Sequence record: NC_048186.1
Strand: one strand, 5' to 3'
DNA: 64,000 nucleotides
DNA from: Escherichia phage vB_EcoM_KWBSE43-6
A program made the translations under genes and the position numbers. Below, piece after piece: positions 32,714 to 55,035 of the stretch. The notes under the pieces were generated by a model. That model was not told the origin of the DNA. It saw only the letters and a program-made list of their open reading frames with translations, and searched no databases. Numbering within the stretch: the stretch's first letter is position 1; each line of letters opens with the position of its first letter.

Positions 32714-32742
32714 CTTTTCAATAAACAGATTTCAATTATTAT
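32714..32742 (+). promoter_or_regulatory. early-promoter-like element (-35 CTTTTC, 17 bp, -10 TATTAT)
   Basis: -35 immediately followed by AATAAAC; 30 nt upstream of ATG 32772. Confidence 0.35.
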
Positions 32743-32771
32743 TCACCCACAATCTAAACGAGGAACAACTG

Positions 32772-32978
32772 ATGGCCCGCGAAGACAATTCACAGATTTC
32801 TACCAACGCCAACTCAACCTTCAATGAGTGGCACAACACCCTTGAGCGCGTAGCACGTTCTCAAGGTGGTTCAGCTGCTGACGCCGATGCCTGGCGTGAA
32901 GATTATGACAATGGCAAGACTCCGCGCCAGGCATGGGAAGACGAATGGGGATGGGAAGATGCAGACACTAATTCGTAA
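32772..32978 (+). CDS. hypothetical protein, 68 aa
   Basis: ATG 32772 with GAGGAA upstream. Confidence 0.45.
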   Translation: MAREDNSQISTNANSTFNEWHNTLERVARSQGGSAADADAWREDYDNGKTPRQAWEDEWGWEDADTNS

Positions 32979-33189
32979 AATCTTTCTGGATAAAAAGGGG
33001 ATGGAATCAAAGGTCGAAATCATCACGACTCAAAAATTGTTTGAGAAAGGTGAAACTCGATACTATCTTAATGTGTTCCTTTACCTTCCAGAATGCAGCC
33101 TGAACCGCGATATTACCCAACCGGATGGAACTGTGGTCCGTTGGGAAATAGCCAAACAGGAAGATGTTGAAAAAGACATATCACTTTGA
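32959..33189 (+). CDS. hypothetical protein, 76 aa
   Basis: First in-frame ATG giving minimal overlap with upstream gene. Confidence 0.4.
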   Translation: MQTLIRKIFLDKKGMESKVEIITTQKLFEKGETRYYLNVFLYLPECSLNRDITQPDGTVVRWEIAKQEDVEKDISL

Positions 33190-33204
33190 AGCGAGATCTA
33201 TATC

Positions 33205-33642
33205 ATGACAAATAAATTCATTTTTCTGGACGTTCGCGGTAAACGATTCTTCAAAACCGATCTGGACGAAAAGACAGAAGGGTTCCAGGGGCGATTATCA
33301 TATTTGTTGCCGACAGGCGATATCGACACCCAAAGATATGTGGCGGATGTACGGGATCTCCTGGATTGTGGTTGGGTTGAAATTCCTAACCCCCAGGTGT
33401 TGACCGTCAACCTGTATTACATGAAGGAAAGTGGGAAGTATTATTCCAATGGAGAACTCCACCTCCTTCGTTCTGAAGTCACTGCCGATCCAGCCAAGAG
33501 TTGGTACAATGCTAGAGAAACCGTCCGGAAGATGGTTGATGAAGGCAATTTGCCTGGCCTGGTATCCGGTTCTCGTTACGATGTGTTCATGTCCTGTGAA
33601 GAGCACCCGTGTTATGTGCCCACTTTGGTGAAGGTGAAATGA
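33205..33642 (+). CDS. hypothetical protein, 145 aa
   Basis: ATG 33205. Confidence 0.55.
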   Translation: MTNKFIFLDVRGKRFFKTDLDEKTEGFQGRLSYLLPTGDIDTQRYVADVRDLLDCGWVEIPNPQVLTVNLYYMKESGKYYSNGELHLLRSEVTADPAKSWYNARETVRKMVDEGNLPGLVSGSRYDVFMSCEEHPCYVPTLVKVK

Positions 33643-34022
33643 TGGAACTCTTAACTGTTGGTGACGTTTTCGAATTGACGCCGGATATGAAAATCGGCAC
33701 AAATGTCCCTAATCATTTCCTGTATTCAAATCGAGTAGGTGATTGGACGCTTTCTCATGGGAGCGTATATCCAGAAGGCGTGTTTGATTATATGCTTGGG
33801 AATTATGTGGTCACCAAAACTGCCAAAGACGGCGGTGGTACTGGTCATGGCCCAGGCGACGTCTATCCCGACGGGCATCACGTTTGGGCGCAGAATGTGG
33901 ACAACGAGAATATCGTAATTGATTTCTATCAGACTGGTTGTTTCACTAATATGCATCGTAATGTGTCCGTCATCGGAAAAGCAAAGGCTCAGAAATGGTC
34001 TTGGGAACGTTTAGATGGGTAG
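33639..34022 (+). CDS. hypothetical protein, 127 aa
   Basis: ATGA overlap with upstream stop. Confidence 0.55.
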   Translation: MMELLTVGDVFELTPDMKIGTNVPNHFLYSNRVGDWTLSHGSVYPEGVFDYMLGNYVVTKTAKDGGGTGHGPGDVYPDGHHVWAQNVDNENIVIDFYQTGCFTNMHRNVSVIGKAKAQKWSWERLDG

Positions 34023-34179
34023 ATCCCTCGTTTCTCATCATTACCGTGACCTCATAAAGCGTCTGGAGCGCAAAGGTATCTTTGAGGGAATGGATAAAGA
34101 AAAGGTGAAGGTCTTGAAAGAAGAAATTCATGAAGCCATTAAAGACACTTCTCGTTCCACATATTTCAAAACTTTATAG
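34015..34179 (+). CDS. small protein, 54 aa
   Basis: ATG 34015 overlapping upstream stop; not in ORF track; weak SD. Confidence 0.3.
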   Translation: MGRSLVSHHYRDLIKRLERKGIFEGMDKEKVKVLKEEIHEAIKDTSRSTYFKTL

Positions 34180-34189
34180 GCTATAACAA

Positions 34190-34630
34190 ATGAAAACTCT
34201 CGAACAAATTTTAGAAGGTCATAAAACAGGAACTTTGTCAGCGGCTTTAGACGGTCGTGACCTGGTTCGCCTGTCTCAGTTTTTGACAGTTGAGCAAATT
34301 GAAAGTCTGGGATTGTCTTTCGAATCTTCTGAAAAACGTGAATCCCATGTCCCGGTTGAATTCACCAAAGAAAATATCCTGAAACAACTGGAAAAGGACG
34401 TCGCCTTTGGGTTTGAAAAGGCTCTGAATCGTCGTGGGATTAGTTCTAGCCTTATGTACGAAGTCGTACAAATGTGGAACTGTATCCTTGAAGAAGGTCT
34501 CGAAGATTTTGATTCGTATGCGATGTACGGCCTTCCTCTGTTTAAAGCAACTGCTGTCAAATACGGGTTTGACAACCCAATCGGTGATGACACAGGTGCC
34601 GAAGATCATTATGAAGAGCAGGGCTATTAA
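34190..34630 (+). CDS. hypothetical protein, 146 aa
   Basis: ATG 34190. Confidence 0.55.
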   Translation: MKTLEQILEGHKTGTLSAALDGRDLVRLSQFLTVEQIESLGLSFESSEKRESHVPVEFTKENILKQLEKDVAFGFEKALNRRGISSSLMYEVVQMWNCILEEGLEDFDSYAMYGLPLFKATAVKYGFDNPIGDDTGAEDHYEEQGY

Positions 34631-34631
34631 T

Positions 34632-34868
34632 ATGCGTATCAAAAAGATCGGATCCAGCCCGCTGACTGGTACTATCTTCTACGGCACCCTGGAAACCAAA
34701 ACCAGCATGTGGGTAGGGGATAAAATTGATGTCACCGAAGAGTGTGTCGCAGCGACGGCTGAGCATATGCGTCATATCAAGAAAGACTACTGCTACAAAA
34801 CGCCTGATGGAAAATATCTGGTGTTGTCTGCTGAAGTCCACGATACTCTTCCGGACAGATTCAAATAA
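34632..34868 (+). CDS. hypothetical protein, 78 aa
   Basis: ATG 34632 two nt after upstream stop. Confidence 0.5.
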   Translation: MRIKKIGSSPLTGTIFYGTLETKTSMWVGDKIDVTEECVAATAEHMRHIKKDYCYKTPDGKYLVLSAEVHDTLPDRFK

Positions 34869-34891
34869 TTTAAAAATATTCAATAAACGGG

Positions 34892-34920
34892 GTTTACTTC
34901 TTCAATAAACCCCGTATACT
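34892..34920 (+). promoter_or_regulatory. early-promoter-like element (-35 GTTTAC, 17 bp, -10 TATACT)
   Basis: Matches T4 early promoter pattern as remembered; contains 17-mer TTTACTTCTTCAATAAA also found at 52830. Confidence 0.4.
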
Positions 34921-34969
34921 TCATTTCATAAGCAGTACGACACCAACTCTGAAATGAAGGAACTATATC

Positions 34970-35392
34970 ATGATCACTCCCAACATCACCGCCTATGCGT
35001 TTGACGACTTCGCCAATTTTGATTCATTCATCAAGAAATTTGGTGTGAATTCCGTCGAAGCCAAGCAATTGTATGGTTCCGATCGTCTGAGCAAAACCGC
35101 CCAGATCAAAGCTACGTTGGAAGAACTGATTGAGTCCTTGGGTGAATCCTTCCGCGCCAAAATCTATAAGAAGGACGGTGGCCTGCGCCAACTGAAAGGC
35201 AAGACTGTCATTCATGAGGCTGATCAATTTACCGTATCTATGCATTTCACGTTCAAGCCTGAATATGAACTTTTTTCCAACGGCGAGGATTCCACCCATT
35301 ACGTCATAGCCAAAGGTAGCAATCGCCCAGTATTTGAATCCGGTGATATCATGGCAGCAATCAATGAAATGGAACGCCTGAATAAAGCATAA
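34970..35392 (+). CDS. hypothetical protein, 140 aa
   Basis: ATG 34970 with GAAGGA upstream. Confidence 0.55.
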   Translation: MITPNITAYAFDDFANFDSFIKKFGVNSVEAKQLYGSDRLSKTAQIKATLEELIESLGESFRAKIYKKDGGLRQLKGKTVIHEADQFTVSMHFTFKPEYELFSNGEDSTHYVIAKGSNRPVFESGDIMAAINEMERLNKA

Positions 35393-35421
35393 CTATTCAA
35401 TAGTCACTATCGGGGTATGAT
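35393..35421 (+). promoter_or_regulatory. early-promoter-like element (-35 CTATTC, 17 bp, -10 TATGAT)
   Basis: TTCAATA-N9-GGGGTATGAT shared with 47033 and 53390. Confidence 0.35.
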
Positions 35422-35461
35422 AAACTTCGTACCCTACACAAATTGATGAGGTCTATATATC

Positions 35462-35722
35462 ATGGCTTGTGCGTCATCTATTCCGAAAATGCTTATCCTG
35501 AAATGGTATGAGCACAGTATTTATGCTCGCATCAAATCAGCTGCGAAAGAGGGTCGAAAAACGATCGAATTATTCCGTCCTTGCGCATCCTCCAAAGCGC
35601 ATCGCGATACATTCGTCTTACTGCGTGAATTGGAACGACTCGGCATCAAAATCGAACCTATGCCATGCAGTAACCCGATGGTCAATCTCTTCGTTCTGAG
35701 CAATTTTGAGAATTTGGAATGA
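35462..35722 (+). CDS. hypothetical protein, 86 aa
   Basis: ATG 35462. Confidence 0.5.
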   Translation: MACASSIPKMLILKWYEHSIYARIKSAAKEGRKTIELFRPCASSKAHRDTFVLLRELERLGIKIEPMPCSNPMVNLFVLSNFENLE

Positions 35723-36162
35723 ATACGATTATCCTCATAACTGGTTCGCGTTCTATTACGGAGCGCGACAAAATCTTTGAAAAGTTAGACGAACTTTCTC
35801 ATACAGATTCCGTTTGTAATCTGTATCATCCGTGCGATACCCTATTGATCGCTGGGGAGGCTGTCGGCGTCGATACGATCTGCAAAGATTGGGCTGAATC
35901 CAGAGGGGTGACTTATCTCGGGATGCCTATCCCCGATGAATACTTCGCTACATATGGGAAAGGGGCTGGAAACAAACGCAACCAGGACATGTTAGACAAG
36001 GCGTTGGAGTTATCACAGAAATACAAGGCGGAGATACTGCCTCTGGCTTTCTGGGACGGTTCATCGACTGGTACGCAGGATATGATCAAACGAATCAACA
36101 AAGCAGGGTTGCATTGTAAGGTCATGCTCTTGGGTAAGCCAAAAACCAAACGCCTTCTGTAA
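35719..36162 (+). CDS. SLOG-like (YpsA/DUF2493-type) Rossmann-fold protein, 147 aa
   Basis: N-terminal ILITGSRS strand-loop, central IAGEAVGVD glycine loop, C-terminal WDGSSTGT; pattern recalled from SLOG family. Confidence 0.45.
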   Translation: MNTIILITGSRSITERDKIFEKLDELSHTDSVCNLYHPCDTLLIAGEAVGVDTICKDWAESRGVTYLGMPIPDEYFATYGKGAGNKRNQDMLDKALELSQKYKAEILPLAFWDGSSTGTQDMIKRINKAGLHCKVMLLGKPKTKRLL

Positions 36163-36185
36163 TTTGTTAACACTGGAGACGTCCC

Positions 36186-36353
36186 ATGATCATTTTTCAA
36201 CTGTTTTGCTATTTGTTCACTCTGTACTTTCTGGTTGCTGTCGGTTATGAAACCTTCCGTGACCTGGCATCGAGCCAGTATGCGTCCAAACTGGTTTATG
36301 CTAAGAAATTTGCTGTCCGCTTCTGGAGCAATTTTCTGTATCGCCTCCCCTGA
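36186..36353 (+). CDS. small membrane protein, 55 aa
   Basis: ATG 36186 with GGAGA upstream; N-terminal hydrophobic helix; not in ORF track. Confidence 0.35.
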   Translation: MIIFQLFCYLFTLYFLVAVGYETFRDLASSQYASKLVYAKKFAVRFWSNFLYRLP

Positions 36354-36354
36354 T

Positions 36355-36383
36355 TTAAATACCCCCATCAATTGGGGGTATTT
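36355..36383 (+). promoter_or_regulatory. late-promoter-like box TTAAATA inside an 11-bp palindrome abutting the start codon
   Basis: Arms AAATACCCCCA 36357-36367 and TGGGGGTATTT 36373-36383, 5-nt loop; ATG 36388. Confidence 0.5.
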
Positions 36384-36387
36384 TCTT

Positions 36388-37116
36388 ATGAACGCACAAA
36401 TTTATGACGCCCTTGAACAAGGCAATGCATTTAACAATCCTCTCCCGGGATTCTCTGCTACTTCTCAGACGTTAATCACCAGTGGCCAACAAAGTATAGC
36501 TGGTATTACAAGCATCCCGGATACGTCCGTTCAGGCGGCGATAACCGCTGGTGGTTTGACTCCTGCTAAACTCAATACAATGAACACCATGTACGGGACT
36601 GCCAACACCGGGATCGGGACTCTGAATTCTTATGGTGACCAGACCGTTAATGAGGCATACAATAGGATCGGAACTTCAGTATCCTATAAATCCGGCCTCA
36701 AAAGTATTGAACGAGAACCCACCAACTGTGATTTGATTAACAACGCATTCGGTGTTGTACAGACACTTGGTCGTCAATGGTTGACTGCAATGGAGGATGC
36801 CTTATCTCCAATAACAGACAAAGTTCAAGAACTGTATGATCTGGCCAAACAAGGCGCGGCGGCGGGGCTGGCCAAAATACAGGCATTAGCCTCACAGGTC
36901 AACGGATTAATCAATGACGCTGTAGCAAAGGTGAATGGTGTTATTCAGAACATCACTGATGGGATAGCTGCTGAGTTAGCTCATATTGAAGATATGGTGA
37001 AGAAGTGTCTTAATTTCTCCTTTGCTAATGTTCTTGGCGAATGGGCAAAAGATCTTTGCGCAGGCGGTGTCATCAACAATATCGGTTCTAATGATCTGAA
37101 AAATGCCCTGAAATAA
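36388..37116 (+). CDS. hypothetical late protein, 242 aa, coiled-coil-rich (possible virion component)
   Basis: ATG 36388; same palindromic late element as two tail-spike genes. Confidence 0.6.
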   Translation: MNAQIYDALEQGNAFNNPLPGFSATSQTLITSGQQSIAGITSIPDTSVQAAITAGGLTPAKLNTMNTMYGTANTGIGTLNSYGDQTVNEAYNRIGTSVSYKSGLKSIEREPTNCDLINNAFGVVQTLGRQWLTAMEDALSPITDKVQELYDLAKQGAAAGLAKIQALASQVNGLINDAVAKVNGVIQNITDGIAAELAHIEDMVKKCLNFSFANVLGEWAKDLCAGGVINNIGSNDLKNALK

Positions 37117-37767
37117 TCAGGGCACAGTCCTTGCTGGCAGAACTCCCACTGGCTCAATACCTTCCACCAGGAGGGAGTTCACGCCTACATCGCTCAACCT
37201 AATCCATATCTTCCCACCAGGCTTAATTTCAAAAACGTTCATTTCATTTCCAACCGCTTCATTATTCACAAATACACCTTGTGTTGCGATCCTGATAGGC
37301 TTCTTCGTGTTGTTTGTGATTTGAAATGTAACAGTTATATCCGTGGTCAGATTAACTCCCTGTTTCATGGTGTAGCGTTTTATTTTGTCGTAGAATGATG
37401 GATTGAATGTGATGATGATGCTGTTGTTCTGTGAGTAATAAATACTTGCTGACAAGTAAGGAATTTTGCCTTCTTCCCCTTTGCGTAAAAGAGGGATGGT
37501 GGTTTTCCAGTATGGTCGCAAAGTGTCTTTATTGTCATCAAAACAACCGACAGGCTGGAGATTTTGGAAACTTTGAAACAAAATAGTGGCCTCATCCAGC
37601 ATGGATTTTTCACATTTGTTGCTGTCTGTTGAAATGGTTACTGGTACAACACGGACATCAGTATCCCAGAGGTCACTAACGGAAATGATGGGCGTGACGA
37701 AAATACGGCAACTTGTCAATACAAGTACCATAAAAATCATCACAATCCATCTTCTGATTCCGCGCAT
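37117..37767 (-). CDS. predicted lipoprotein, 216 aa
   Basis: Minus ATG at 37765-37767; signal peptide MRGIRRWIVMIFMVLVLTSC with lipobox LTSC; stop abuts stop of converging plus gene. Confidence 0.6.
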   Translation of the reverse strand: MRGIRRWIVMIFMVLVLTSCRIFVTPIISVSDLWDTDVRVVPVTISTDSNKCEKSMLDEATILFQSFQNLQPVGCFDDNKDTLRPYWKTTIPLLRKGEEGKIPYLSASIYYSQNNSIIITFNPSFYDKIKRYTMKQGVNLTTDITVTFQITNNTKKPIRIATQGVFVNNEAVGNEMNVFEIKPGGKIWIRLSDVGVNSLLVEGIEPVGVLPARTVP

Positions 37768-37805
37768 CAGGGACACAATTAATCTCCACAGCAAAGGTGC
37801 TAACA

Positions 37806-38306
37806 ATGTCTACTTCAGTCCAATTCAAACATGACAACCCAAATTATGCAGCATCCGATAAGTGGCGCTTAACTATCGGTGATCTGATATTGTTATCCCG
37901 CTCTGTACACGATTTTAGCATACCAGGCGTGTATTCCGAGGGCATCGATGGGCCTTCGCCCGGTTCAGTGCTCAACACGATCCCTTCTGAACGTTTAACA
38001 TATGATCCCATCGTATTTACGTTCGTTATCGATGAGGATTGGGTAAACTGGGAAACCATCTACAACTGGATAGCCAGCAACGCCGCCGCTGATATGGCTG
38101 TTAGTAAAGACATCACCATAGAATTACTCAACAACATGAACCGCCCGGTTGGCCTGCAACTTCTGTTGGAAGAAGCACGTCCAACTGCACTGGACAACGT
38201 TCTTGTTGATGTGGACGCTTCTGTTCCCCAATTAGTTACAACGGTGACTTTCAAGTATCTGAAACTGACACCGACCCGTGTCGTACGTGAAATTGATAAA
38301 GAATGA
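37806..38306 (+). CDS. hypothetical protein, 166 aa
   Basis: ATG 37806; diverges from lipoprotein gene across a 38-bp spacer. Confidence 0.55.
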   Translation: MSTSVQFKHDNPNYAASDKWRLTIGDLILLSRSVHDFSIPGVYSEGIDGPSPGSVLNTIPSERLTYDPIVFTFVIDEDWVNWETIYNWIASNAAADMAVSKDITIELLNNMNRPVGLQLLLEEARPTALDNVLVDVDASVPQLVTTVTFKYLKLTPTRVVREIDKE

Positions 38307-38343
38307 GTTATAATAGAGAGAGTTGAAAAGGTGGGAATATTTT

Positions 38344-38805
38344 ATGGAAGTTAACAACACTCAATATCAAACGATGTCTATAGAGGACATCATGGCTGAA
38401 CTGGATCCACTGATTACGGTTGATCCAGCTGATCGTAATTTAGATCAGATTTCGTTGAAGATCGGACGTTCCTTTATGACAGTGCAGCGGCATTACATTC
38501 GTGAAGGGCGTTATCTGGAATATCTGACTGGGCGGTTTAAACAGATTGATGTTTATCTGCGGAGATATTATGCCGGGGAATTACCTGCGCAATCGTACCG
38601 AGATCGTCCTCTCAACAACAAACCACTGAAAACTGATCTGCCTCTATGGGTCCAGGCTGATGACATGTATGTTGAGATGTCCGGGCTGCTCCAAGAGCAG
38701 AGAGCAAAAGTGAAATTCATCGAAAGTTGTTTGGATCGTTTGAACAAGCTGGGTTATGAAGTCAAAAACGCCATAGATTGGCGAAAATACATGGACGGTA
38801 TGTAG
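38344..38805 (+). CDS. possible recombination mediator UvsY-like protein, 153 aa
   Basis: C-terminal half aligns loosely with remembered T4 UvsY; adjacent to nuclease and UvsW. Confidence 0.4.
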   Translation: MEVNNTQYQTMSIEDIMAELDPLITVDPADRNLDQISLKIGRSFMTVQRHYIREGRYLEYLTGRFKQIDVYLRRYYAGELPAQSYRDRPLNNKPLKTDLPLWVQADDMYVEMSGLLQEQRAKVKFIESCLDRLNKLGYEVKNAIDWRKYMDGM

Positions 38806-38807
38806 CG

Positions 38808-39554
38808 ATGAGTCGACTCCAGGCACTCAAGAAGATCAACAATATTGAGGAACGTCAATATACATTTCAGCAGTACGAATTACCGTACAAGGAGCTGACT
38901 TGTGTAACGAACGAGAATGGACGCCATTACGTTTCCCCAACAGGAGTAAAGTTGACCTCTGTGACAACCATGTTGGGGCGTACCAGTGATCATACATGGT
39001 TGGATGCCTGGGTCGAAAGGCTTGGAGTTGAAGAAGCAGCAATTGAAACACAAAGGTGCGCTGATAGGGGAGAGGCAGTGCATCTTGCTTGTGAGTTATA
39101 TCTGAAGAATGCCCCAATGAAAGATGTTGTGGCCGCCGCCGGACAATATCTGTTCATGTTCATGCAGTTGTTTCCCTATCTGAACCGCATGACAAAGATA
39201 TATGCTCAGGAAATACCTCTATATAGCGAAGTATTGGGCTTGGCCGGGCGTGTGGATTTAATTGGGGTGTACAACGGAACCCCAGCAATTATCGACTTCA
39301 AGACTTCGAACACCCTGAAAACCAGAGACATGATCGAGGATTACAGCATCCAATTGTGTCTGTATTCAGTTATGTTTCAACAGATGTTTAATGTCAAAAT
39401 CGAGCGTCTCATCAACATCATATCCAATGAGAATGGTTTACTGCCGACAGTAATAGAATTCGACAGAAAGGATATTCTCCCAAAAATGTTCGAGCGCGTC
39501 CGTTTATATCACCGTATGGACAAGGAACAGAATGGAATCTGGGCAGACCGCTAA
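38808..39554 (+). CDS. PD-(D/E)xK family nuclease (RecB/Cas4-like exonuclease fold), 248 aa
   Basis: Motifs GEAVH, GRVDL, IIDFKTS, QLCLY in canonical order. Confidence 0.65.
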   Translation: MSRLQALKKINNIEERQYTFQQYELPYKELTCVTNENGRHYVSPTGVKLTSVTTMLGRTSDHTWLDAWVERLGVEEAAIETQRCADRGEAVHLACELYLKNAPMKDVVAAAGQYLFMFMQLFPYLNRMTKIYAQEIPLYSEVLGLAGRVDLIGVYNGTPAIIDFKTSNTLKTRDMIEDYSIQLCLYSVMFQQMFNVKIERLINIISNENGLLPTVIEFDRKDILPKMFERVRLYHRMDKEQNGIWADR

Positions 39555-39557
39555 ATA
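39551..39557 (+). promoter_or_regulatory. late-promoter-like box CTAAATA
   Basis: GCTAAATACTCC 25 nt upstream of ATG 39582. Confidence 0.35.
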
Positions 39558-39581
39558 CTCCATATAATTGGGAGGATTGGT

Positions 39582-41099
39582 ATGGCCGACATTTCTGTGA
39601 CCAAAGTGAACGAAGTCCGTATGCGTGTGCATGCTGACGCAGGGATCTATGAAGAACTAAATGATTATTTCAAATTTGAAGATCCCAACTTTCAGCCTAA
39701 TCCTTTCAGCAAATGGGATGGCGTCGTCCGTTTATTCACCAAATCTTCCGGGTTGATCGACATCGGTCTTCTGTTTGAACTCTTCAAATTTTGTAAGACC
39801 AACGGTTATTCACTTGACGTAGATCCTGCATTGAAATATATCCAGGACATCCCTGATAATGAAATTCATGATTTCTGTAATAATTTGAAAACACAAATTC
39901 GCACAGAATCTGGGGAATACATTGATGCTGAAGTTCGACAGTATCAATTCGATTCCATCGCCACTGCCATGAGGCAATCTCGCTGCGTCCTCGAGCTGGC
40001 TACAAGTGCCGGTAAATCCTTTATTCTTTATGTGATGGCCCGTTACTACAGGGAAAGACGAGAAGCGCTCGAAAGTAATCTGAGGACGCTTATCGTTGTT
40101 CCTTCTGTGCATCTTGTCAGACAATTGTACGAGAACTTCGAAGAATACAGTCATGGACAATCCTGGAACCCGTTCTACCAGGTACAGACCATATGCGAAG
40201 GTGCAACCCGCAATATTGATAAACCCATCACAATTTCCACATGGCAAGGCATACAAGACCAGCCAAAGGATTGGTTTCATCAGTTTGGTGATATCATTGT
40301 TGACGAAGTTCATACCTCAAAGTCGGATAAACTTTCATATATCCTCAACAACTGCATAAATGCTGACCAGCGCCTTGGGGTGACTGGTACTTTGGCGAAC
40401 ACTAAAGTTGCTGGTCTGCAGGTGGTATCCCACTTTGGTGCCTATCACAAGATCATCACGGCTCGAGAACTGATCAGTATGGGATATGCAGCTGACATTA
40501 AAATCCGGATGATAGAATTGAAACACAGATTGGCCGACGCTATTGATATGCATGGCGCCGATTACCAGAAAGAAATGGAATATTTGATATCGAACGAAGT
40601 TAGAAACCGGCTTATCGCCAAGATGGCTTTAACATTGAAGGGTAACGTCGCCATCATGTTCGAACGTATTGATGCCCATATGATGATCGTGTATGATATC
40701 CTCAAAGAAATAAAGCCCAACGTATTTGTCATCAACGGGGAAGTCAAATCAGCAGACCGCATGCAAATCCAAAGGGCGATAGAAGAAGGTGAGGATATTA
40801 CTCTGTTGGCATCTTATGGAACGATGCAACAAGGGGTTTCTATAAAGAAACTTCACCATCTGGTATTGGCACACCCAAGCAAATCATATATTCGTGTTAT
40901 CCAGACTCTGGGAAGATTGATGCGTCAGCACTCAACAAAAGACGTGGCACTCATATGGGATTTGGTAGACAATTTGAGTTATAATGGGAGTTACAATCAT
41001 GCGTTGCGTCACTCTCACGAGCGATACAAATTTTATTTGACAGAACGCCACCCTGTCGAATTGAAAAGAGTGGCGCTGGAAGATTATTTGGGGTCTTGA
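39582..41099 (+). CDS. uvsW: UvsW-like SF2 DNA helicase
   Basis: ATSAGKSFILYVMARYY (Walker A), DEVH box, TWQGIQDQPKDWFHQFG match T4 UvsW. Confidence 0.85.
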   Translation: MADISVTKVNEVRMRVHADAGIYEELNDYFKFEDPNFQPNPFSKWDGVVRLFTKSSGLIDIGLLFELFKFCKTNGYSLDVDPALKYIQDIPDNEIHDFCNNLKTQIRTESGEYIDAEVRQYQFDSIATAMRQSRCVLELATSAGKSFILYVMARYYRERREALESNLRTLIVVPSVHLVRQLYENFEEYSHGQSWNPFYQVQTICEGATRNIDKPITISTWQGIQDQPKDWFHQFGDIIVDEVHTSKSDKLSYILNNCINADQRLGVTGTLANTKVAGLQVVSHFGAYHKIITARELISMGYAADIKIRMIELKHRLADAIDMHGADYQKEMEYLISNEVRNRLIAKMALTLKGNVAIMFERIDAHMMIVYDILKEIKPNVFVINGEVKSADRMQIQRAIEEGEDITLLASYGTMQQGVSIKKLHHLVLAHPSKSYIRVIQTLGRLMRQHSTKDVALIWDLVDNLSYNGSYNHALRHSHERYKFYLTERHPVELKRVALEDYLGS

Positions 41100-41476: not shown

Positions 41477-41790
41477 CTCGTGTTGTTTACATCCTTATAT
41501 AATAGTCTCATGTTATGTTTAGACCAATTTAAAATAATTTGCCTTTCGGATTAAAAAGTCCTTTCTTGTTGAACAACTCCGTCGTACTATACGAGTTGTG
41601 AGCTTTGCGAGCAACGAGTATTAGGGGTTTACGAGCGAAGCGAGTTGATTAATATAAATTAATAGATTAATCTATTTCGTTAATAATTTGCGCGCGAAGA
41701 GATTTAACACTTGTTCTATATCCCCAAATGGGCGATACTAAATTGCGTCAACAACATGACTTGACTTCACTATATCTTGAGGATACATAA
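41477..41790. promoter_or_regulatory. 314-bp AT-rich divergent intergenic region with direct repeats upstream of clamp gene
   Basis: Repeated ACGAG/GCGAG (ACGAGTTG 41591, GCGAGTTG 41636), clustered ATTAAT/TTAATA 41648-41690; TTGACT and MotA-box-like TTGCGTCA near gene 45 start. Confidence 0.4.
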
Positions 41791-42459: not shown

Positions 42460-42492
42460 TCTTCAATATCTGCCTGTTGCTTTAATATCGTT

Positions 42493-42518
42493 GCAGGGGC
42501 TTTGTGCCCCTGTATTTT
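42493..42518 (+). terminator. terminator-like hairpin
   Basis: GCAGGGGC tttgt GCCCCTGT then ATTTTG. Confidence 0.45.
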
Positions 42519-43987: not shown

Positions 43988-44452
43988 ATGGCGCGCAATA
44001 CGCTCGACATCTTAAAACTGACTGCGGTCGACGATGAGGCCAGCATCGTCGATTGTATGGTCGAAGTTGAACTGAACCAAGATAAACCGGGAATTTTCCT
44101 GGGTATCAAGGAAACACTGAGCCGAATCGGGGTTAATACTCGCCAAGAGCCTGAAACCCTGTATCAGACCTGCCATATCCTCCACAAATCTGGCAAGTAT
44201 TTTATCGTCCATTTCAAGCATCTGTTTATGCTGGATGGGCATTACAACGGCTTTCAGCGTGAAGATGTCCTGCGTATGAATCGCATCATTCGTCTTCTGG
44301 AGCAGTGGAAGATGATTAAGGTTCTGCATCCGGAACAAGTAACCGAATGCGCCGACATGTCCCGTATCAAAGTTGTGAAACACGATCAGATCGCTGATTG
44401 GAAACTGGTTCCCAAATATATCATTCGCCCATCTCGGGCCAAAAGCGAATAA
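43988..44452 (+). CDS. regA: translational repressor RegA
   Basis: LYQTCHILHKSGKYFIVHFKHLFMLDG and DWKLVPKYIIR match T4 RegA; AAGGAG SD. Confidence 0.75.
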   Translation: MARNTLDILKLTAVDDEASIVDCMVEVELNQDKPGIFLGIKETLSRIGVNTRQEPETLYQTCHILHKSGKYFIVHFKHLFMLDGHYNGFQREDVLRMNRIIRLLEQWKMIKVLHPEQVTECADMSRIKVVKHDQIADWKLVPKYIIRPSRAKSE

Positions 44453-45335: not shown

Positions 45336-45359
45336 GGCTATCAGGGTTTCAATATACAG

Positions 45360-45386
45360 CAGAGGCTATAATGGCCTCTGTTTTTG
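45360..45386 (+). terminator. rho-independent terminator
   Basis: CAGAGGC tataatg GCCTCTG TTTTT. Confidence 0.6.
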
Positions 45387-45406
45387 TATTCTAAGAAGAG
45401 GATACC

Positions 45407-47029: not shown

Positions 47030-47058
47030 GTTTTCAATAACTGTAATCGGGGTATATT
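47030..47058 (+). promoter_or_regulatory. early-promoter-like element (-35 GTTTTC, 17 bp, -10 TATATT)
   Basis: TTCAATA-N9-GGGGTATATT; 66 nt upstream of ATG 47124. Confidence 0.35.
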
Positions 47059-47123
47059 GACCTCACTTTAACGAAGCGCCTCAACCGGGGCGCACATTTG
47101 AACTGAAACAGGAAGACTATATC

Positions 47124-49160
47124 ATGTCAGATTTTAAACCCTTCGCAGTTGCTGTAAAGAATCAAATCACCGCGATGTCCAGCAATGGCCTGTACATGAC
47201 TTCGGTTGACAAAGACGCCCTGTGGGATCTGTACCTGTCATCTTTCCCGGAAGGCACGAACAACATCTACCGCGAGCGCACTGAGCACGATTGCACCTGC
47301 TGCAAGCAATTCATCCGTAACATCGGCGGCGTCGTATCGATTGACGCTGATCTGAACCTGGTTACTGTGTGGGACAGCGTCAATCTGGGTAACGAATACG
47401 AAGTGGTGGCGGCAGCGCTGGCCAAATATGTCAAGCAGCACAACATCGTCGGCGTTTACTTCAACGATTCAGCTAAGGTGAGCGTAGAAAGCAACCACGA
47501 AATGGGTGAAAACGGTAAAGTCCGCACCTACGACCATTTCCACGCCGTTCTGAACAATAAATTCGTCCTGCGCGGCGAAGATATCGCCTCCACCAAAGGC
47601 GAAATTTCCCAATCCATTGAAGTATTTGAGCGCAGCATGCGTGAGCTGACTATGGAATCGGCTGAAATCGTCCTGGAACTGATCGATCAGAATTCTCTGT
47701 ATCGCGGCGAAGAGCATCGTTCGGCTGTACAAAGTTTTGTGCAGAGCAAAACCGAATACATGAAAATTCGCTCCGATCTGAAACAACTTTGGGCCTGGCG
47801 AACTGGTTGGTTGTCTAAAAACCATAAGCCGTTCGGCATCCGCAATACTGTCATCGGCACCCTGCTGACCGATCTTTCTGACGGCGTTGAAATGGAAAAG
47901 GCGGTGAAATCCTTTGAAACCAAAGTCGCTCCGACCAACTACCGCCGCCCGACTGCCCTGGTCACCAAAGGTATGATCGAAAAGGCGCAGAAAACGGTTG
48001 CCGAACTCGGCCTGACTGAATCTTTGGGTCGCCGCTATGCGAAGTATGAAGACCTGACGATCAACAACGTGCTGTTCGCCGATATCGATGCGCGGAAAGC
48101 TATGGATCCGTTCGATCAATTGGCGCAGGAAGTCAAAGTGACTGAAAAGTCGCTGGGTAAAATTGAAGAGATCAGCGTCGATGATTTCATCAAAAACGTT
48201 ATCCCGAAAGCGCGTTCCATGGAAGTGATGTTTGAAGGACGTCATACCGCCAACCTGATGTCTCTGGTCGCACCGGAAACTCAAGGCGCTCCGAACCTGT
48301 TCAAATGGGGTAATAATTTCTCCTGGTCCTACAACGGTGAAGTTGCTGATTCCATCAAAGAGCGCGTGAAAGCCGCTGGTGGTAACGTTGATTCATTCCT
48401 GCGCATTTCGCTGGCCTGGTTCAACAATGACGACCTGGACCTGCACATGTACACTCCGACGAACGAACACATTTATTTCTCTCGCGGTTGCCGCCGTTCT
48501 TACCATACTGGTGGTGAGTTGGATATTGACATGAACGGTATGGATGGGATCAACAAAGAGCGTAAACCGGTTGAGAACATCTTCTTCAAAGACAAGAACA
48601 TGCTGCGTGATGGCGTGTACCGTTTCATCGTCGACAACTATGCCCAGCGTGAAACCATCGACACCGGGTTCATCGTTGAGGTGGAATATGAAGGCGACCT
48701 GAAACGTTTCTCCTGTGAAAAAGGTCTGAAGAATAAACAGCAGATGACCGTCATTGAACTGCGCGTCAAAGACAAAAAGGTTGTTGAAATTCAGTCTTCC
48801 CTGGTGCCGACAACTGGCGTGGAAACTGAAATTTGGGGTATCCGTACCCAGAATTTCCAGAAGGTGCAACTGGTCCTGAATTCTCCTAACCACTGGGACG
48901 GTGAACAGACCGGAAACCGACATCTGTTCTTTATCCTGGAAGGTTGTATCAACCCGGCCAGCACTCGCGGCTTCTACAATGAATATCTGAAGCCGGAATT
49001 GGCACCGCATGGCAAGGTTTTTGAAATGTTGGGCGCTAAAATGAGAGCAGAACCGAGTGATAAGCAACTCAGCGGCCTGGGCTTCTCTTCCACTCAGCGC
49101 AATTATGTCCTGGTGAAGGTAAGCGGTTCATTTAATCGTGTAGTCAAAGTCGTTTTTTAA
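47124..49160 (+). CDS. hypothetical protein, 678 aa
   Basis: Long ORF with good start context; HDCTCCKQF cysteine cluster near N-terminus; no Walker motifs. Confidence 0.6.
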   Translation: MSDFKPFAVAVKNQITAMSSNGLYMTSVDKDALWDLYLSSFPEGTNNIYRERTEHDCTCCKQFIRNIGGVVSIDADLNLVTVWDSVNLGNEYEVVAAALAKYVKQHNIVGVYFNDSAKVSVESNHEMGENGKVRTYDHFHAVLNNKFVLRGEDIASTKGEISQSIEVFERSMRELTMESAEIVLELIDQNSLYRGEEHRSAVQSFVQSKTEYMKIRSDLKQLWAWRTGWLSKNHKPFGIRNTVIGTLLTDLSDGVEMEKAVKSFETKVAPTNYRRPTALVTKGMIEKAQKTVAELGLTESLGRRYAKYEDLTINNVLFADIDARKAMDPFDQLAQEVKVTEKSLGKIEEISVDDFIKNVIPKARSMEVMFEGRHTANLMSLVAPETQGAPNLFKWGNNFSWSYNGEVADSIKERVKAAGGNVDSFLRISLAWFNNDDLDLHMYTPTNEHIYFSRGCRRSYHTGGELDIDMNGMDGINKERKPVENIFFKDKNMLRDGVYRFIVDNYAQRETIDTGFIVEVEYEGDLKRFSCEKGLKNKQQMTVIELRVKDKKVVEIQSSLVPTTGVETEIWGIRTQNFQKVQLVLNSPNHWDGEQTGNRHLFFILEGCINPASTRGFYNEYLKPELAPHGKVFEMLGAKMRAEPSDKQLSGLGFSSTQRNYVLVKVSGSFNRVVKVVF

Positions 49161-49620: not shown

Positions 49621-49694
49621 ATCCATCAGCAATAAAGCCTCATTCAATATACGTGGGCATATAATATCCTAGTGTTAAACAGTGGAGAAGATTT

Positions 49695-50051: not shown

Positions 50052-50058
50052 GGCGATA

Positions 50059-50202
50059 ATGGATTCCTGTCTATTAGATCCCGAGAACGTTCTTGTGGTT
50101 GAAATTGAAAACAACAAGCCGTTCATTTTGAAAATGTTGGAGAAGGATAATAATCCTGAAACCAATCCTAAACTATCCCAAAAGGGGAATAACGATGATT
50201 GA
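50059..50202 (+). CDS. small protein, 47 aa
   Basis: ATG 50059 after GAGG; not in ORF track; overlaps next gene start. Confidence 0.3.
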   Translation: MDSCLLDPENVLVVEIENNKPFILKMLEKDNNPETNPKLSQKGNNDD

Positions 50203-52448
50203 ATCATTAGAATTTAAGAATGCCACACAGACGGTCGCTCCTTCCAATCACGTCATCGTCGTTGACATTTCTTATTCCATGTGTTATGCGCTGCCGAAAC
50301 TGCGCCAGCACCTGAAAGAAAACCTGCCCTCCCTGGTTAAGCCGGAAGACACCGTCAGTATTCTGTACTTCTCTTCTCGTGGCGACTTCGGTACTGTGTT
50401 CGCTGGGCGCCAGGTCACCAACGCATCTGACCTGAGTGAGCTGGGTAAACTGATCGATCGCTTCCTGCAACCAACTGGCTGCACCGGATTTGTTGAGCCG
50501 CTCAAGCTGGCTATCGAAACCGCCAACGATCTGAAAAAGTCCGGCGTCATCAATTCCCTGGTGTTCATGACCGACGGTTATGACAACTGCTGGCGTTCCA
50601 GTGAAATTCTCGCGGTCGCAGAGCAGCTGCCAAAGGCGTACGACAACATCACGCTGATCGAATACGGCTGGAACTGCAACCGGGAACTGCTGCAGAAAAT
50701 GGCAGAGTGCTCTGGTGCCACCCATGTATTCGCCGAAGGCCAGGAAGAATATCAGATCGAACTGGAAACAGCGATGGTTTCTGTCGCTCCGCGCGTTCGC
50801 GTTGATTTCAGTATCATCTATTCCTATGCCGTTTATATCGAAAACGGGATTCCGACCATCCTGGCCGCCCAGTCTGATGAAGACCATCCTATCAATTACG
50901 TCAACATCCCTGAGAGCGTCTCTAAGCTGTGGGTTGTTGATCCTGATATGATCGACCAACTGGATAACCTGGCGGACGTTGAAGCGGCATATGTGCTGGC
51001 TCTCTTTGGCGTGCATACTATGGATGCCGACCTGGTGTGGGCCGCGCTGAAAAAGACTGGCGATGTGCGCTTCATTAAACAGTACACCAACTGCTTCACC
51101 AAGCAGGATTATTCCAACATCAAAACTGACATCACAGCAGCGATTGTAGACCCGGCGCTGCGCGGTGTGGACGGTATCGATTACAATCTGGTGCCGCCGG
51201 AAGACGCAACTACTGTTGTTGATGTTCTGACTTACCTGGCGGGAGCAGATGCACAACTGGTTGTTGACCATCCCCTGTTCTCTTACAAGCGGATCGGTCG
51301 CGGTACGGTACAAAAAGCCGACGATACCGAAGACAAGCTGGCGGCAGAAATTGCCGAAGCCAAATCTAAAGAAGAGCGTAAAGCGCTGGCCCTGAAACTG
51401 GCTGAGCACGAAGACTGGACTCCTGTGTTTGAGCCGGTGAAAGGCGCGGGCGTTCCCATCAGCAATCTGGTTTACAACTCGGCCCGCCCGAACATCAGTC
51501 TGCAGACTGTGCAAAACGGGACCGTCATCATCCCGAAGTTCGCACAAAAGAAATACGATCTGCCTGAATCTATTGATACGTGGCAGTGGAAGAACTACAC
51601 CAAAGAAATACGATCTGCCTGAATCTATTGATACGTGGCAGTGGAAGAACTACACCATCGTCAAAGACGGTATCATCCATATGAAGACCCTTCCTGTGGT
51701 CTGCTCGGTGGAAACCGTATCTGAACTGGTTAGCAAAGGCGTTGAAGTTTACGGCGGGCCGGAAGTGTTCATCGTAAATCTGGGCAGCGTTCCTCTGGTT
51801 AACCGCGCGATGGTTAAGAACATCAGCGCCGCGCAGTTCTTTGCTGACCACGTCCGTCTGGAATCCCTGAAAGCCAAGCAGAAGGTTCTCAAATATTTCC
51901 GTGACGAACTGGTTGGGAAAGGTAATGCCGTGGGCCTGGCAGGCAAATACGGCTTTGAAGCGGCTGAGTTTTTGTCTGCGAATGGCATCCGCGATTACGG
52001 CTTCTCTCCGAAGACCGCTTCGGTTGAGTCTACTGATTTCTACATGAGCCGCGAACTCAATGTGAAGATCAAAGGCGCTTCCTCGCTGCCGTCAATTGCC
52101 GCCGTTCTGAAGAAACAGGCCGACAACAAAAAACTGAACGCAGCTGATCAGCTGATCGCTAATGCGCTGGCAGAATACAACGCCTTTGTCAAATCTCCGG
52201 CGGTGACTGCAGTTCCGGAAGCAACGCAGGCCAAGATCATTGAATCTTGGATCAGTGATGCTGCCAAGGCTGCTATCACCCAAGTCCGTGAGCTGAACAA
52301 GACCCTGTCCAAATCTCTGTATGCCATCGTTGCAGGCCATGGCTGGTTCACCGACCTGGATCTGGAAGAGTCCACCATGGAAGTGGAAGTTGATGGCGTC
52401 AAATACACCGTCAGTGCAGTCCTGGAAGAGAAAGAGATCAAAATCTAA
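50195..52448 (+). pseudogene. vWA-domain protein gene split into two ORFs (50195-51622, 51573-52448) by a 55-bp tandem duplication
   Basis: N-terminal vWA/MIDAS motifs (VVVDISYSM, FMTDG); removing one repeat copy restores a single ORF of about 732 aa with KKYDLPESIDTWQWKNYT read once. Confidence 0.6.
51547..51656. repeat. perfect 55-bp direct tandem duplication (2 copies)
   Basis: AAAGAAATACGATCTGCCTGAATCTATTGATACGTGGCAGTGGAAGAACTACACC at 51547-51601 and 51602-51656; 55 is not a multiple of 3. Confidence 0.9.
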
Positions 52449-52456
52449 TCAACTGT

Positions 52457-52478: not shown

Positions 52479-52492
52479 ATAAGGTATCCCAA

Positions 52493-52816: not shown

Positions 52817-52828
52817 TTTTGAAGTTGG

Positions 52829-52857
52829 CTTTACTTCTTCAATAAATGATTTAATAT
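52829..52857 (+). promoter_or_regulatory. early-promoter-like element (-35 CTTTAC, 17 bp, -10 TAATAT)
   Basis: Contains 17-mer TTTACTTCTTCAATAAA identical to 34893-34909. Confidence 0.35.
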
Positions 52858-52909
52858 TAATTTTGTAGGGCGGGAACGGCTCCCGCCTGATTGAAGAAGG
52901 CACTATATT

Positions 52910-53388: not shown

Positions 53389-53414
53389 AATCAATAACAC
53401 GGACGGGGTATGAT
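53386..53414 (+). promoter_or_regulatory. early-promoter-like element (-10 TATGAT in GGGGTATGAT context)
   Basis: ATCAATA-N8-GGGGTATGAT; overlaps hairpin GACGGGG...CCCCGTC so the two roles conflict. Confidence 0.3.
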
Positions 53415-53447
53415 TGCCCCGTCTATTTGAAATGCAGGAACTATACC

Positions 53448-53918
53448 ATGACCCGTATTAATGTCATTCCCGTTGAATCTCTGTGTGATCAGCATTTGCT
53501 CGCTGAATATACCGAACTGGCGCCTGTTGTCCTTAATGTTGTGAATGGAAAACGTCGCAATCTCAAAGGCGCTCCAAAACATTACAAACTCAACGAAGGT
53601 CATGTGTTATTTTTCCGGGACAAACTGATTTATCTGATTGAGCGCTATGACCAACTTGTCACTGAACTGATATCTCGCGGGTATACCGTGAATTATCCTT
53701 CTCTTCGAAATCAGATAACTCATGAGAACAAACAGGAACTCCGGATTTATCTAAATGATTATCAACCGACTCAAGCTGCAGTCCAAGAAAATGTGGAACG
53801 CATAGTCGAAAGGTTGAAGGGTATGGGCAAAATAACGTATAACAGAAAGCCCGTAGATCCTTCTTATATGGTTGGCGTCATGAAACAGAATTTCGAATTT
53901 GGTGAGGTGGCATTATGA
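53448..53918 (+). CDS. denV: endonuclease V (pyrimidine dimer DNA glycosylase) DenV
   Basis: MTRINVIPVESLCDQHLLAEYTELAPV...GHVLFFRDKL matches T4 DenV N-terminus. Confidence 0.8.
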   Translation: MTRINVIPVESLCDQHLLAEYTELAPVVLNVVNGKRRNLKGAPKHYKLNEGHVLFFRDKLIYLIERYDQLVTELISRGYTVNYPSLRNQITHENKQELRIYLNDYQPTQAAVQENVERIVERLKGMGKITYNRKPVDPSYMVGVMKQNFEFGEVAL

Positions 53919-54223
53919 CAGATTTTATAGTCCCTCCAGCCTCATTCCTTCGCGTGAAAAATGAAGTGAAGGAAATCACGGGCTGTACTCACAAAGAATC
54001 TACGACTATCACCATGATGCTGGAAGCAAAAATGTTGGTAGATTCAGAGGATACAAAAGCGGCACTGAATTCTCTGTTGGCTCTTATTATCCGAGCGTAC
54101 CGAATCCCTGCTATTTCAGATGCGGACGATTTGGTTAAACTCCTCAACACTGGAGGGAAAGAATATGATTCCCTCCGCATCTTTATGACCGGTATACAAG
54201 AAGGTGGTTGGTATGAATCTTAA
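53915..54223 (+). CDS. hypothetical protein, 102 aa
   Basis: ATGA overlap with denV stop. Confidence 0.5.
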   Translation: MTDFIVPPASFLRVKNEVKEITGCTHKESTTITMMLEAKMLVDSEDTKAALNSLLALIIRAYRIPAISDADDLVKLLNTGGKEYDSLRIFMTGIQEGGWYES

Positions 54224-54389
54224 TTGGGAATTAATGGGTTGGATCCTTTGCTCCATTTTTGGCGTATTGGGTATTCTGTGGATTATTGTTGGTATCTGGT
54301 TCTATCGGGTTATTACACAATATGAAGCGCGTAAAGCGGAGCGCCAGGTACGCCAGGAAGAAATTCGCAATCGCCGGGAGAACTGGTGA
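54213..54389 (+). CDS. small membrane protein, 58 aa
   Basis: ATG 54213; hydrophobic helix WILCSIFGVLGILWIIVGIWFY then basic tail. Confidence 0.4.
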   Translation: MNLNWELMGWILCSIFGVLGILWIIVGIWFYRVITQYEARKAERQVRQEEIRNRRENW

Positions 54390-54502
54390 TGGAAGAAAAT
54401 ATCTGGCATGTCATCGGCGGCAATCTGTTGGGTATTCTGATCGTCTGGTTCTGTTATTGGTTCGGTGGCAAGCTGGCTAAATTTTTCCACGGACGTGACT
54501 AA
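54389..54502 (+). CDS. small membrane protein, 37 aa
   Basis: ATG overlapping upstream stop; single hydrophobic helix; not in ORF track. Confidence 0.25.
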   Translation: MEENIWHVIGGNLLGILIVWFCYWFGGKLAKFFHGRD

Positions 54503-54534
54503 CTAAGGGATAACTCCATATCCCGAGGTGTGCC

Positions 54535-54984
54535 ATGTTCTTGACTTCCTTTATCGACTGGTTGAATATCATCAACGGCCTGAGGATTCCTGTGGGAAAC
54601 CTCGGGCTTTCTCGTTCTTCTATGCCACAAATTGACGCTGATAAACAGCAAGACTTCCATGATTATCTGGAGGCGAATGGCGTGACCATAGATGCATCTC
54701 AAGTCCCGATCCGAACATTGCGGCTGACTCAGAACGAGATCAACAAAATGAAGGTCTGGAAGATCATGAAGCAGATCAGGAACAAGAAGCCGATGGGCCG
54801 GGTTTGGGTATCTTCAGACAATTACGTCGTGGATGGTTCCCATCGGTTTGTGGCCGCTCTGAATATGGACGGCAAGCAACGAATGAAGGTTTACAAAGTA
54901 GATTTGCCTGCCATGGAATTTGTCAAATTAGCTCGAAAATTCAATGGGGTGCGTTATCGTACTGTTTCTGATGCACGTTTCTGA
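54535..54984 (+). CDS. ParB/sulfiredoxin-like nuclease domain protein, 149 aa
   Basis: IRTLRLTQNEI and VVDGSHRFVAA resemble ParB N-terminal domain motifs (DGHHR-type). Confidence 0.5.
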   Translation: MFLTSFIDWLNIINGLRIPVGNLGLSRSSMPQIDADKQQDFHDYLEANGVTIDASQVPIRTLRLTQNEINKMKVWKIMKQIRNKKPMGRVWVSSDNYVVDGSHRFVAALNMDGKQRMKVYKVDLPAMEFVKLARKFNGVRYRTVSDARF

Positions 54985-55005
54985 ATAAAGAATATTATTG
55001 AAATC

Positions 55006-55035
55006 CTTTACTCAATAAACCTTCCGAACTACTAT
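55006..55035 (+). promoter_or_regulatory. early-promoter-like element (-35 CTTTAC, 18 bp, -10 TACTAT)
   Basis: CTTTAC followed by TCAATAAAC; 28 nt upstream of ATG 55063. Confidence 0.35.

Follow-up and report, generated by a model that had tools for sequence, protein, structure and literature searches.

A conserved box paired with a sigma-70-type -10 element probably marks the promoters of prereplicative genes in an Ackermannviridae phage

The stretch of DNA analyzed here comprises 64,000 nucleotides (nt) of Escherichia phage vB_EcoM_KWBSE43-6 (NC_048186.1) and is referred to in its entirety as the window, and the element in question is one that recurs in its intergenic gaps, consisting of TTCAATA(A) followed by a TAnnnT hexamer 12 to 14 nt further on. 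These sites are probably the promoters of the prereplicative, that is non-structural, genes of Ackermannviridae, with a -10 hexamer of the sigma-70 type and with two related layouts. In the class II layout the box TTCAATAA is located at about -32 to -25, where it would take the place of a -35 element, and G is frequent at -14; the class I layout would be a sigma-70 promoter with both -35 and -10 hexamers, in whose spacer the same box is usually present, though not at a constant position, and upstream of which there is often an inverted copy. We base the promoter reading on the strand bias of the sites, their intergenic position, the fixed distance to the -10, their conservation in five genera, and their absence from the structural half of the window. 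Earlier literature already gives the core motif as a characteristic of the Ackermannviridae, and the finding is therefore largely ordinary, with modest additions in the split into two classes, the variable position of the box in class I, and a design in which a terminator is set within a promoter.

The pattern TCAATA-N12-14-TAnnnT occurs 10 times on the + strand of the window and not at all on the - strand, compared with 0.88 expected, and a listing of every intergenic gap places all ten matches between genes. None of 200 dinucleotide-preserving shuffles reached a count of 10, and none of 100 reached the observed count in a second run with a wider gap setting; enrichment over shuffled sequence was one of the conditions set for the motif in an earlier annotation of this DNA made without database searches (the sequence-only reading). 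Across five genomes, the distance from intergenic TCAATA to the -10 has a narrow maximum at 13 nt (17 cases, flanked by 6 at 12 nt and 8 at 14 nt) and a second hump at 7 to 9 nt that has the class I cassettes among it, and boxes within coding sequences give a flat distribution. If strong -10 hexamers in the reconstructed complete genome of a relative are used as the anchor, TCAAT at -19 is the most position-specific 5-mer, with CTTTA at -24 and TTTAC at -23 next, and in the same genome most matches on each strand are found where the genes run that way. In the case of Erwinia phage phiEa2809, 44 kb contain 14 matches on the + strand and 2 on the - strand. Because TAnnnT is permissive and the gaps between genes are AT-rich, chance might be considered as the source of the repeats, but this explanation is barely credible, being refuted by the shuffles and by the conservation of sites across genera, and the 10 to 0 distribution between strands and the sharp spacing peak also speak against it.

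The sequence-only reading had described the motif as a -35-like hexamer of the GTTTAC type followed immediately by AATAAAC and, after a spacer, a -10. The repeats it saw are real, but their conserved core is TTCAATAA positioned 12 to 14 nt upstream of TAnnnT and not the GTTTAC-type -35: in an unbiased count of intergenic hexamers, the leading words include TATAAT, TTCAAT, and TCAATA as well as CTAAAT and words from hairpin stems, and no GTTTAC-type word is among them. The hexamer has AATAAAC directly after it, as an exact match, only at 32714, and what was taken for a single layout merges two, the hexamer and box at 34892 and 52829 being 4 nt apart and the box and -10 only 7 nt apart. Several of its more specific observations were borne out, including the 17-mer TTTACTTCTTCAATAAA, which is identical at 34893 and 52830 (2 matches compared with 0.04 expected), the pattern TCAATA-N8-9-GGGGTAT(R)(W)T, which has exactly three copies, at 35397, 47034, and 53391 (0 expected), and the combination [GC]TTT[AT]C-N17-18-TAnnnT, with 7 matches on the + strand against 1.6 expected and 7 reached in 1 of 200 shuffles. 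Its range for the sites was nearly sufficient, although they span 32717 to 58587 and so extend slightly past it, and a box-less relative is found at 56888-56910. A scan with a generic sigma-70 consensus gave 43 matches over both strands (about 30 expected) and did not rank the real sites above background, and the canonical TTGAC-N17-19-TAnnnT is not enriched (3 matches, 3.3 expected).

The genome is that of a Klebsiella Taipeivirus and so belongs to the Ackermannviridae, the family for which the motif TTCAAT[N14]TATAAT is cited, as positions 32000-40000 of the window have 98% nucleotide identity over 99% of their length to the Taipeivirus Klebsiella phage phi1_175010 (PQ066595.1), and approximately 270 further Ackermannviridae records are also matched by this segment. 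According to the annotation of PQ066595.1, the major capsid gene is located at 30433-31764 and is followed first by small hypothetical open reading frames (ORFs) and then by genes for UvsY, UvsW, the sliding clamp, the clamp loader, RegA, a MazG-like protein, and the 5-hydroxymethyldeoxyuridine (5-hmdU) DNA kinase, with an HU-like protein, helicases, and gp55 also encoded in the non-structural part, while the structural module occupies positions 1-32000. Class I and class II motifs are present in none of the 16 intergenic gaps of the structural half and in 12 of the 26 gaps of the other half (Fisher p = 0.001), whereas late motifs of the CTAAAT type are present in 9 of 16 and 3 of 26 gaps, respectively (p = 0.004). 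This partition supports a prereplicative role for the class I and class II sites, though 'early' and 'middle' are not separable by it. The heptamer CTAAATA has 11 copies on the + strand, compared with 4.2 expected, that are mostly in the structural half, and those at 863 and 4175 are followed by CCCC.

Upstream of the genes for a 678-amino acid (aa) protein and for the HU-like protein, both box and -10 are invariant in five genera, i.e., Taipeivirus, Kuttervirus, Limestonevirus, Agtrevirus, and Nezavisimistyvirus. The spacer upstream of the 678-aa gene (13-14 nt) varies between them, as would be the footprint of a bipartite promoter judged from sequence, and the spacer upstream of the HU-like gene is conserved too. 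Two further gaps, one from the gp45-like to the gp44-like gene and one from the MazG-like to the kinase gene, have the same layout with one-base variants of the box, and orthologous positions are kept in phages ViI, PP35, ChubbyThor, and phiEa2809, which is the conservation anticipated for a family motif.

Several considerations weigh against reading the sites as prereplicative promoters. The orthologous sites are not independent observations, several of the -10 hexamers are weak (TAAGCT, TACTAT), and alternative -10 assignments are possible at 49644 and 52839. The sites score only 9 of 12 in the generic sigma-70 consensus scan, which makes them inseparable from background there, and the class I box is at a non-canonical distance without a demonstrated role. 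Furthermore, no transcription-start, transcriptome, or timing study of Ackermannviridae was found in the literature searched.

Eight sites, at 32717, 35396, 42462, 45348, 47033, 49643, 53390, and 58563, have the class II layout and are without a -35-like hexamer; read at a 17-nt spacer, their hexamers are CTTTTC, CTATTC, GGGTTT, and similar. All are on the + strand. The first (32717-32742) has the box TTCAATAA at 32717-32724 and, after 13 nt, the -10 TATTAT at 32737-32742, and precedes a 68-aa ORF at 32772. The second (35396-35435) has TTCAATAG, 13 nt, and TATGAT at 35416-35421, with the downstream gene at 35462. Three sites contain TTCAATAT: that at 42462-42514 has a spacer of 14 nt before TAATAT (42483-42488) and precedes the gp44-like clamp-loader gene (42545), that at 45348-45389 has 12 nt before TATAAT (45367-45372) and precedes the 5-hmdU DNA kinase gene (45407), and that at 49643-49667 has 12 nt before TAATAT (49662-49667), with an alternative -10 TATAAT at 49660 and the downstream gene at 49695. 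The site upstream of the 678-aa gene (47124) extends over 47033-47058, with TTCAATAA, 13 nt, and TATATT at 47053-47058, and is followed by a leader hairpin at approximately 47076-47092. At 53390-53424, ATCAATAA is 12 nt from TATGAT (53409-53414) and a denV-like gene follows at 53448, and at 58563-58587, TTCAATAA is 12 nt from TAAGCT (58582-58587) and the gene for the HU-like protein follows at 58649. A G at -14 is found at 5 of 10 window sites and 8 of 14 phiEa2809 sites, and the T that would precede it at -15 is missing in most of the window cases.

The class I layout is rarer than class II and was found by searching six sequences for [GC]TTTAC-N16-18-TAnnnT. It consists of (G/C)TTTACT, 16 to 17 nt, and TAtAcT (17 to 18 nt if the distance is taken from the (G/C)TTTAC hexamer), and is present in the window at 34892, 52829, and 55006, and perhaps at 41627, with the 17-mer held by the first two. 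The class I spacer usually contains TCAATAA; between 0 and 4 nt separate CTTTAC from the box, the distance between CTTTAC and the -10 is constant at 17 to 18 nt, and an inverted copy of the box (TTTATTGAA) is often located 5' of the promoter. In an alignment of eight orthologous or paralogous class I cassettes, TTTACT and TTCAATA are invariant and the position of the -10 is fixed. The first cassette (34879-34920, + strand) has a direct copy, TTCAATAAAC, upstream at 34879, followed by GTTTACT at 34892-34898, the box TTCAATAA at 34901-34908, only 7 nt from the -10, and TATACT at 34915-34920, with the downstream gene at 34970. About 60 nt of this cassette, including the predicted transcribed leader, are nearly identical in ViI, PP35, and ChubbyThor. 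The cassette at 52829-52888 on the + strand has CTTTACT at 52829-52835, TTCAATAA at 52838-52845, the -10 TAATAT at 52852-52857, and a leader hairpin at approximately 52868-52888, with the downstream gene at 52910. A third site (55006-55035, + strand) mixes the two layouts: CTTTACT at 55006-55012 overlaps the box CTCAATAA at 55011-55018, the box is 12 nt from the -10 TACTAT at 55030-55035, an inverted copy TTATTGAA lies upstream at 54996-55003, and the downstream gene begins at 55063.

Two side observations concern these cassettes and their possible fourth member. The leader at 34921-34969, 3' of the class I promoter, contains a conserved hairpin (CTTCATTTCA...TGAAATGAAG) whose right arm lies over the Shine-Dalgarno sequence, and its loop, CATAAGCAGTACGAC, is common to paralogous cassettes, being found also at 12559-12610 of locus L004 and 44947-44998 of locus L005; an Rfam scan of the window, this hairpin included, returned no known RNA family. 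The 314-nt gap at 41477-41790 upstream of the sliding-clamp gene contains GTTTAC-N17-TAATAT (41627), a late-like ACTAAATT, and AT-rich repeats, and is probably a region of several promoters.

The class I sites are those that most resemble T4 early promoters, among which a GTTTAC variant of the -35 occurs, and the sequence-only reading had assigned the whole series to that pattern. The assignment fits at 34892, 52829, 55006, and possibly 41627, and does not fit the eight class II sites, which are the majority. One can nevertheless picture all the sites as a single sigma-70 class of the T4 early kind, with (G/C)TTT(A/T)C as a -35 set 17 to 18 nt from the -10 and with host polymerase acting unaided right after infection. 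The pattern [GC]TTTAC-N17-18-TAnnnT, with 5 matches compared with 0.65 expected, fits this, as do the seven class I sites that keep CTTTAC at 17 to 18 nt from the -10 while the box moves, and class II read at a 16-nt spacer gives TnTTCA, which agrees with TTGACA at 3 or 4 of 6 positions. However, TTTAC is missing in 8 of 11 sites, the conserved TTCAATAA corresponds to hexamer positions 3-6 plus four bases of spacer, so that the TTG read by sigma-70 region 4 is not conserved, GTTTAC-type hexamers are unenriched in intergenic DNA, and there is no TGn extended -10, with no TG preceding the -10 at the three of these sites listed by the scan. We thus consider a single early class rather unlikely, and prefer two related layouts of prereplicative promoter.

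The long stretches shared by class I cassettes, including the identical 17-mer, and the presence of paralogous copies elsewhere in the genomes suggest another explanation, in which a mobile or recombining cassette gave rise to the repeats, which would be alike by descent and have no function as promoters. An insertion in Klebsiella phage XDRKpn-1 (L010) is also suggestive here: in its positions 3432-3712, compared with 34946-34972 of the window, an extra 83-aa ORF and a terminator are located between the class I cassette at 34892 and its gene, with a flanking 27-nt sequence (GAAATGAAGGAACTAyATyATG) that repeats the leader and ribosome-binding site. Shuffling of modules at conserved regulatory stretches may be behind this insertion; a second indel (33652-34189) does not coincide with a cassette. 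Descent without promoter function is nevertheless highly improbable, as the only elements common to class II sites are the box and the -10, set a constant distance apart, and their spacers and flanks are unrelated, a pattern that signals functional constraint and not recent duplication, and the orientation of the sites follows gene direction.

Hairpins overlap many of the predicted promoters. By folding, 6 of 12 have a hairpin at least as strong as -12.7 kcal/mol that covers the -35, the -10, or the predicted +1, and two more have leader hairpins. The hairpin at 34887-34915 extends from the -35 through the -10 of the first class I cassette and is followed by the conserved leader hairpin, that at 35412-35435 begins at the -10, with GGGGTAT at its start, and that at 42492-42514, which is terminator-like and followed by TTTT, straddles the predicted +1. 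In the case of the kinase and denV-like promoters, the -10 is in the loop, with TATAAT in the loop of a terminator hairpin at 45358-45382 and TATGAT in that of the hairpin at 53401-53424 (GACGGGG...CCCCGTC). The sixth hairpin, at 56888-56910 on the + strand, belongs to the related element upstream of the gene at 56931; it is a strong terminator hairpin with TATAAT (56896-56901) in its loop, and the site has no TTCAATA box at all. These hairpins are GC-rich and often have a T run after them, and those at 45358-45382 and 56888-56910 are among the best terminator-like sites in a consensus scan. Such a hairpin would stop transcripts coming from upstream, and transcripts of the promoter itself, starting inside or after the hairpin and thus without its left arm, would be expected to escape termination. 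A terminator-in-promoter design of this kind would show how tightly packed genes can be insulated from each other.

The late regions have a comparable arrangement. At 863-899 on the + strand is a terminator-like hairpin whose left arm is the late motif CTAAATACCCC and whose right arm is GGGGTATTTT; the same design is found at 4175-4210 and 36354-36381, the right arm reading GGGGTATTT(T) across the three. Since the motif is itself the left arm of the hairpin, the late promoter is embedded in the terminator of the upstream gene at all three places. The window contains an excess of GGGGTAT (17 copies compared with 4.9 expected), and the sequence-only reading had remarked that this word is also the right arm of late palindromes and had left the coincidence unexplained. 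It is indeed an arm of those palindromes, and the overlap of hairpin arms with promoters accounts for the rest: in prereplicative promoters GGGGTAT results where a G-rich stem arm directly adjoins the TAT of the -10, an arrangement that also puts a G at -14, and in late regions it is the complement of ATACCCC in CTAAATACCCC.

The -10 hexamers are of the sigma-70 type, and the host holoenzyme is therefore the likely polymerase; class I, with normal -35/-10 geometry, is plausibly readable by the unmodified enzyme. The ViI-like phages were described as having few promoters of sigma-70 consensus, with early and middle signals unidentified and with no MotA, AsiA, Alt, or ModA reported (Kutter et al. 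2011, PMC3184105). A tblastn search with T4 AsiA as the query, covering the window, a relative's complete genome, and four further loci, found no AsiA homologue, the best E-value being 0.1 for a match inside the gp55-like gene. The query was validated by its 100% identity to annotated asiA genes, and against a phage collection it matched 1,173 records, with T4-type phages being all that appeared among the matches listed. Neither a second sigma factor nor a phage RNA polymerase was found, and the small ORFs 3' of the promoters contain no DNA-binding or transcription-factor families in Pfam or PHROGs. An ORF of 246 aa at 56143-56883, annotated as a 'sigma factor', matches no family and is unlike sigma factors in its fold.

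The 678-aa ORF (47124-49160) was considered as a phage RNA polymerase, its orthologue in ChubbyThor being labeled 'putative DNA-directed RNA polymerase', and was rejected, as it has no sequence match in PDB and only local fold matches to beta-sandwiches. The protein has more than 5000 homologues and a precomputed domain, PF26675, and its gene adjoins the 5-hmdU DNA kinase gene, a position from which a link to thymidine hypermodification is possible.

Class II resembles a T4 middle promoter in geometry but is not a member of the MotA/AsiA system, because its box has another sequence and AsiA has no homologue in the sequences searched. It is conceivable that class II functions as T4 middle promoters do, and that the same box in the class I spacer shuts class I off, giving a switch from early to middle transcription. 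The distance of 12 to 14 nt between box and a good -10 would be consistent with this, MotA boxes in T4 being at 12 +/- 1 nt and centered at -30 (PMC2988021), and so would the missing -35 element, the location of class II upstream of clamp-loader, 5-hmdU kinase, denV, and HU-like genes, which concern replication and DNA modification, the location of class I upstream of small ORFs of unknown function, and the variable placement of the box, in either orientation, around class I promoters. The lack of AsiA from the window and from the full genome of the relative, the lack of reports of the four T4 proteins in ViI-like phages, the failure to find a candidate factor, and the lack of timing data in the literature searched are all unfavorable to such a switch, and we regard it as doubtful.

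Whether the box is read at all by a putative phage protein is a somewhat better prospect, though still short of an even one, the alternative being that the -10 and the G at -14 suffice alone. More specifically, and only tentatively, TTCAATAA may be bound by a putative Ackermannviridae protein that replaces the -35 contact, a non-homologous analogue of MotA/AsiA that would switch transcription from early to middle through the class I spacers. If this were true, it would answer the question raised by Kutter et al. 2011 of how ViI-like phages time their prereplicative genes without MotA, AsiA, Alt, or ModA. For early and middle promoter recognition in the Ackermannviridae, the distinction between a sigma-70-like class and a class with a box and no -35 provides a concrete and testable hypothesis. 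The motif is also useful for annotating transcription units in the Ackermannviridae, a family that includes many candidates for phage therapy or biocontrol.

Two further features were observed in the non-structural part of the window. The sequence CTATAT(C/T)ATG is found at the start codons of prereplicative genes, at 33198, 34963, 44462, 47117, 52903, and 53441 (and 35452), with 6 copies on the + strand compared with 0.33 expected and 6 reached in 0 of 200 shuffles, and orthologues in other genera have GGAA(C)CTAyAyCATG. As a RegA homologue is encoded at 43988-44452, this sequence could be a RegA operator, or else a translation signal specific to these genes. The overlapping ORFs at 50195-51622 and 51573-52448 correspond to one gene of 2199 nt in PQ066595, which is labeled 'tail protein' there and von Willebrand factor A-domain protein in PP35 and ChubbyThor, and there may be a frameshift or a sequencing error in the window.

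The closest known system is the motif of the Ackermannviridae themselves, for which TTCAAT[N14]TATAAT and CTAAATAcCcc are cited together as a trait of the family ('Viunalikevirus') (PMC7283392). The sites in the window share with it the box, the -10, the virus family, and the spacing, TCAATA plus 12 to 14 nt being the same as TTCAAT plus 13 to 15 nt, so that TTCAAT plus 14 nt corresponds to the observed peak at TCAATA plus 13 nt; the late motif CTAAATA(CCCC) co-occurs in the window, and class II is without essential difference from the published motif. The published consensus does not separate the (G/C)TTTACT layout of class I, the variable position of the box, or the overlapping hairpins. The first of the two motifs was reportedly proposed by Adriaenssens et al. 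in 2012 in Arch Virol.

Compared with T4 early promoters, 'uber' sigma-70 promoters composed of UP, -35, TGn, and -10 elements, class I is similar in having (G/C)TTTACT 16 to 17 nt from TAtAcT and AT-rich DNA upstream, and differs in the lack of TGn and in the TTCAATAA box in its spacer; only three to four window sites qualify, and early timing would be an extrapolation from layout. The middle promoters of T4 have a MotA box 12 +/- 1 nt from TAtaaT, centered at -30, and are used through sigma appropriation by AsiA and MotA (PMC2988021). Class II is similar in having a phage-specific box near -30, 12 to 14 nt upstream of a strong TAnnnT, with no -35, and in its location upstream of genes for replication and nucleotide metabolism, but its box is TTCAATAA in place of the MotA box (a/t)(a/t)TGCTT(t/c)a, it is accompanied by no AsiA homologue here and by no reported MotA in ViI-like phages, and its dependence on an activator is hypothetical.

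Finally, the T4-type phages RB49 and phi1 have promoter-early stem-loop (PeSL) cassettes, whose stem-loop covers the -35 and -10, falls between them, or immediately precedes the start site (Arbiol et al. 2010, PMC2839356). PeSL cassettes mediate a modular shuffling of the ORFs next to them, to which the insertion in XDRKpn-1 may be a parallel. They belong to another phage family and have another promoter consensus, and the terminators described here are predicted from a scan and from folding energies. Nevertheless, a sigma-70-like promoter with an overlapping or adjacent stem-loop is found at 6 of 12 promoters in the window, and in both systems such cassettes are repeated between small non-essential ORFs; in the present case a gene insertion adjoins one cassette in a close relative.

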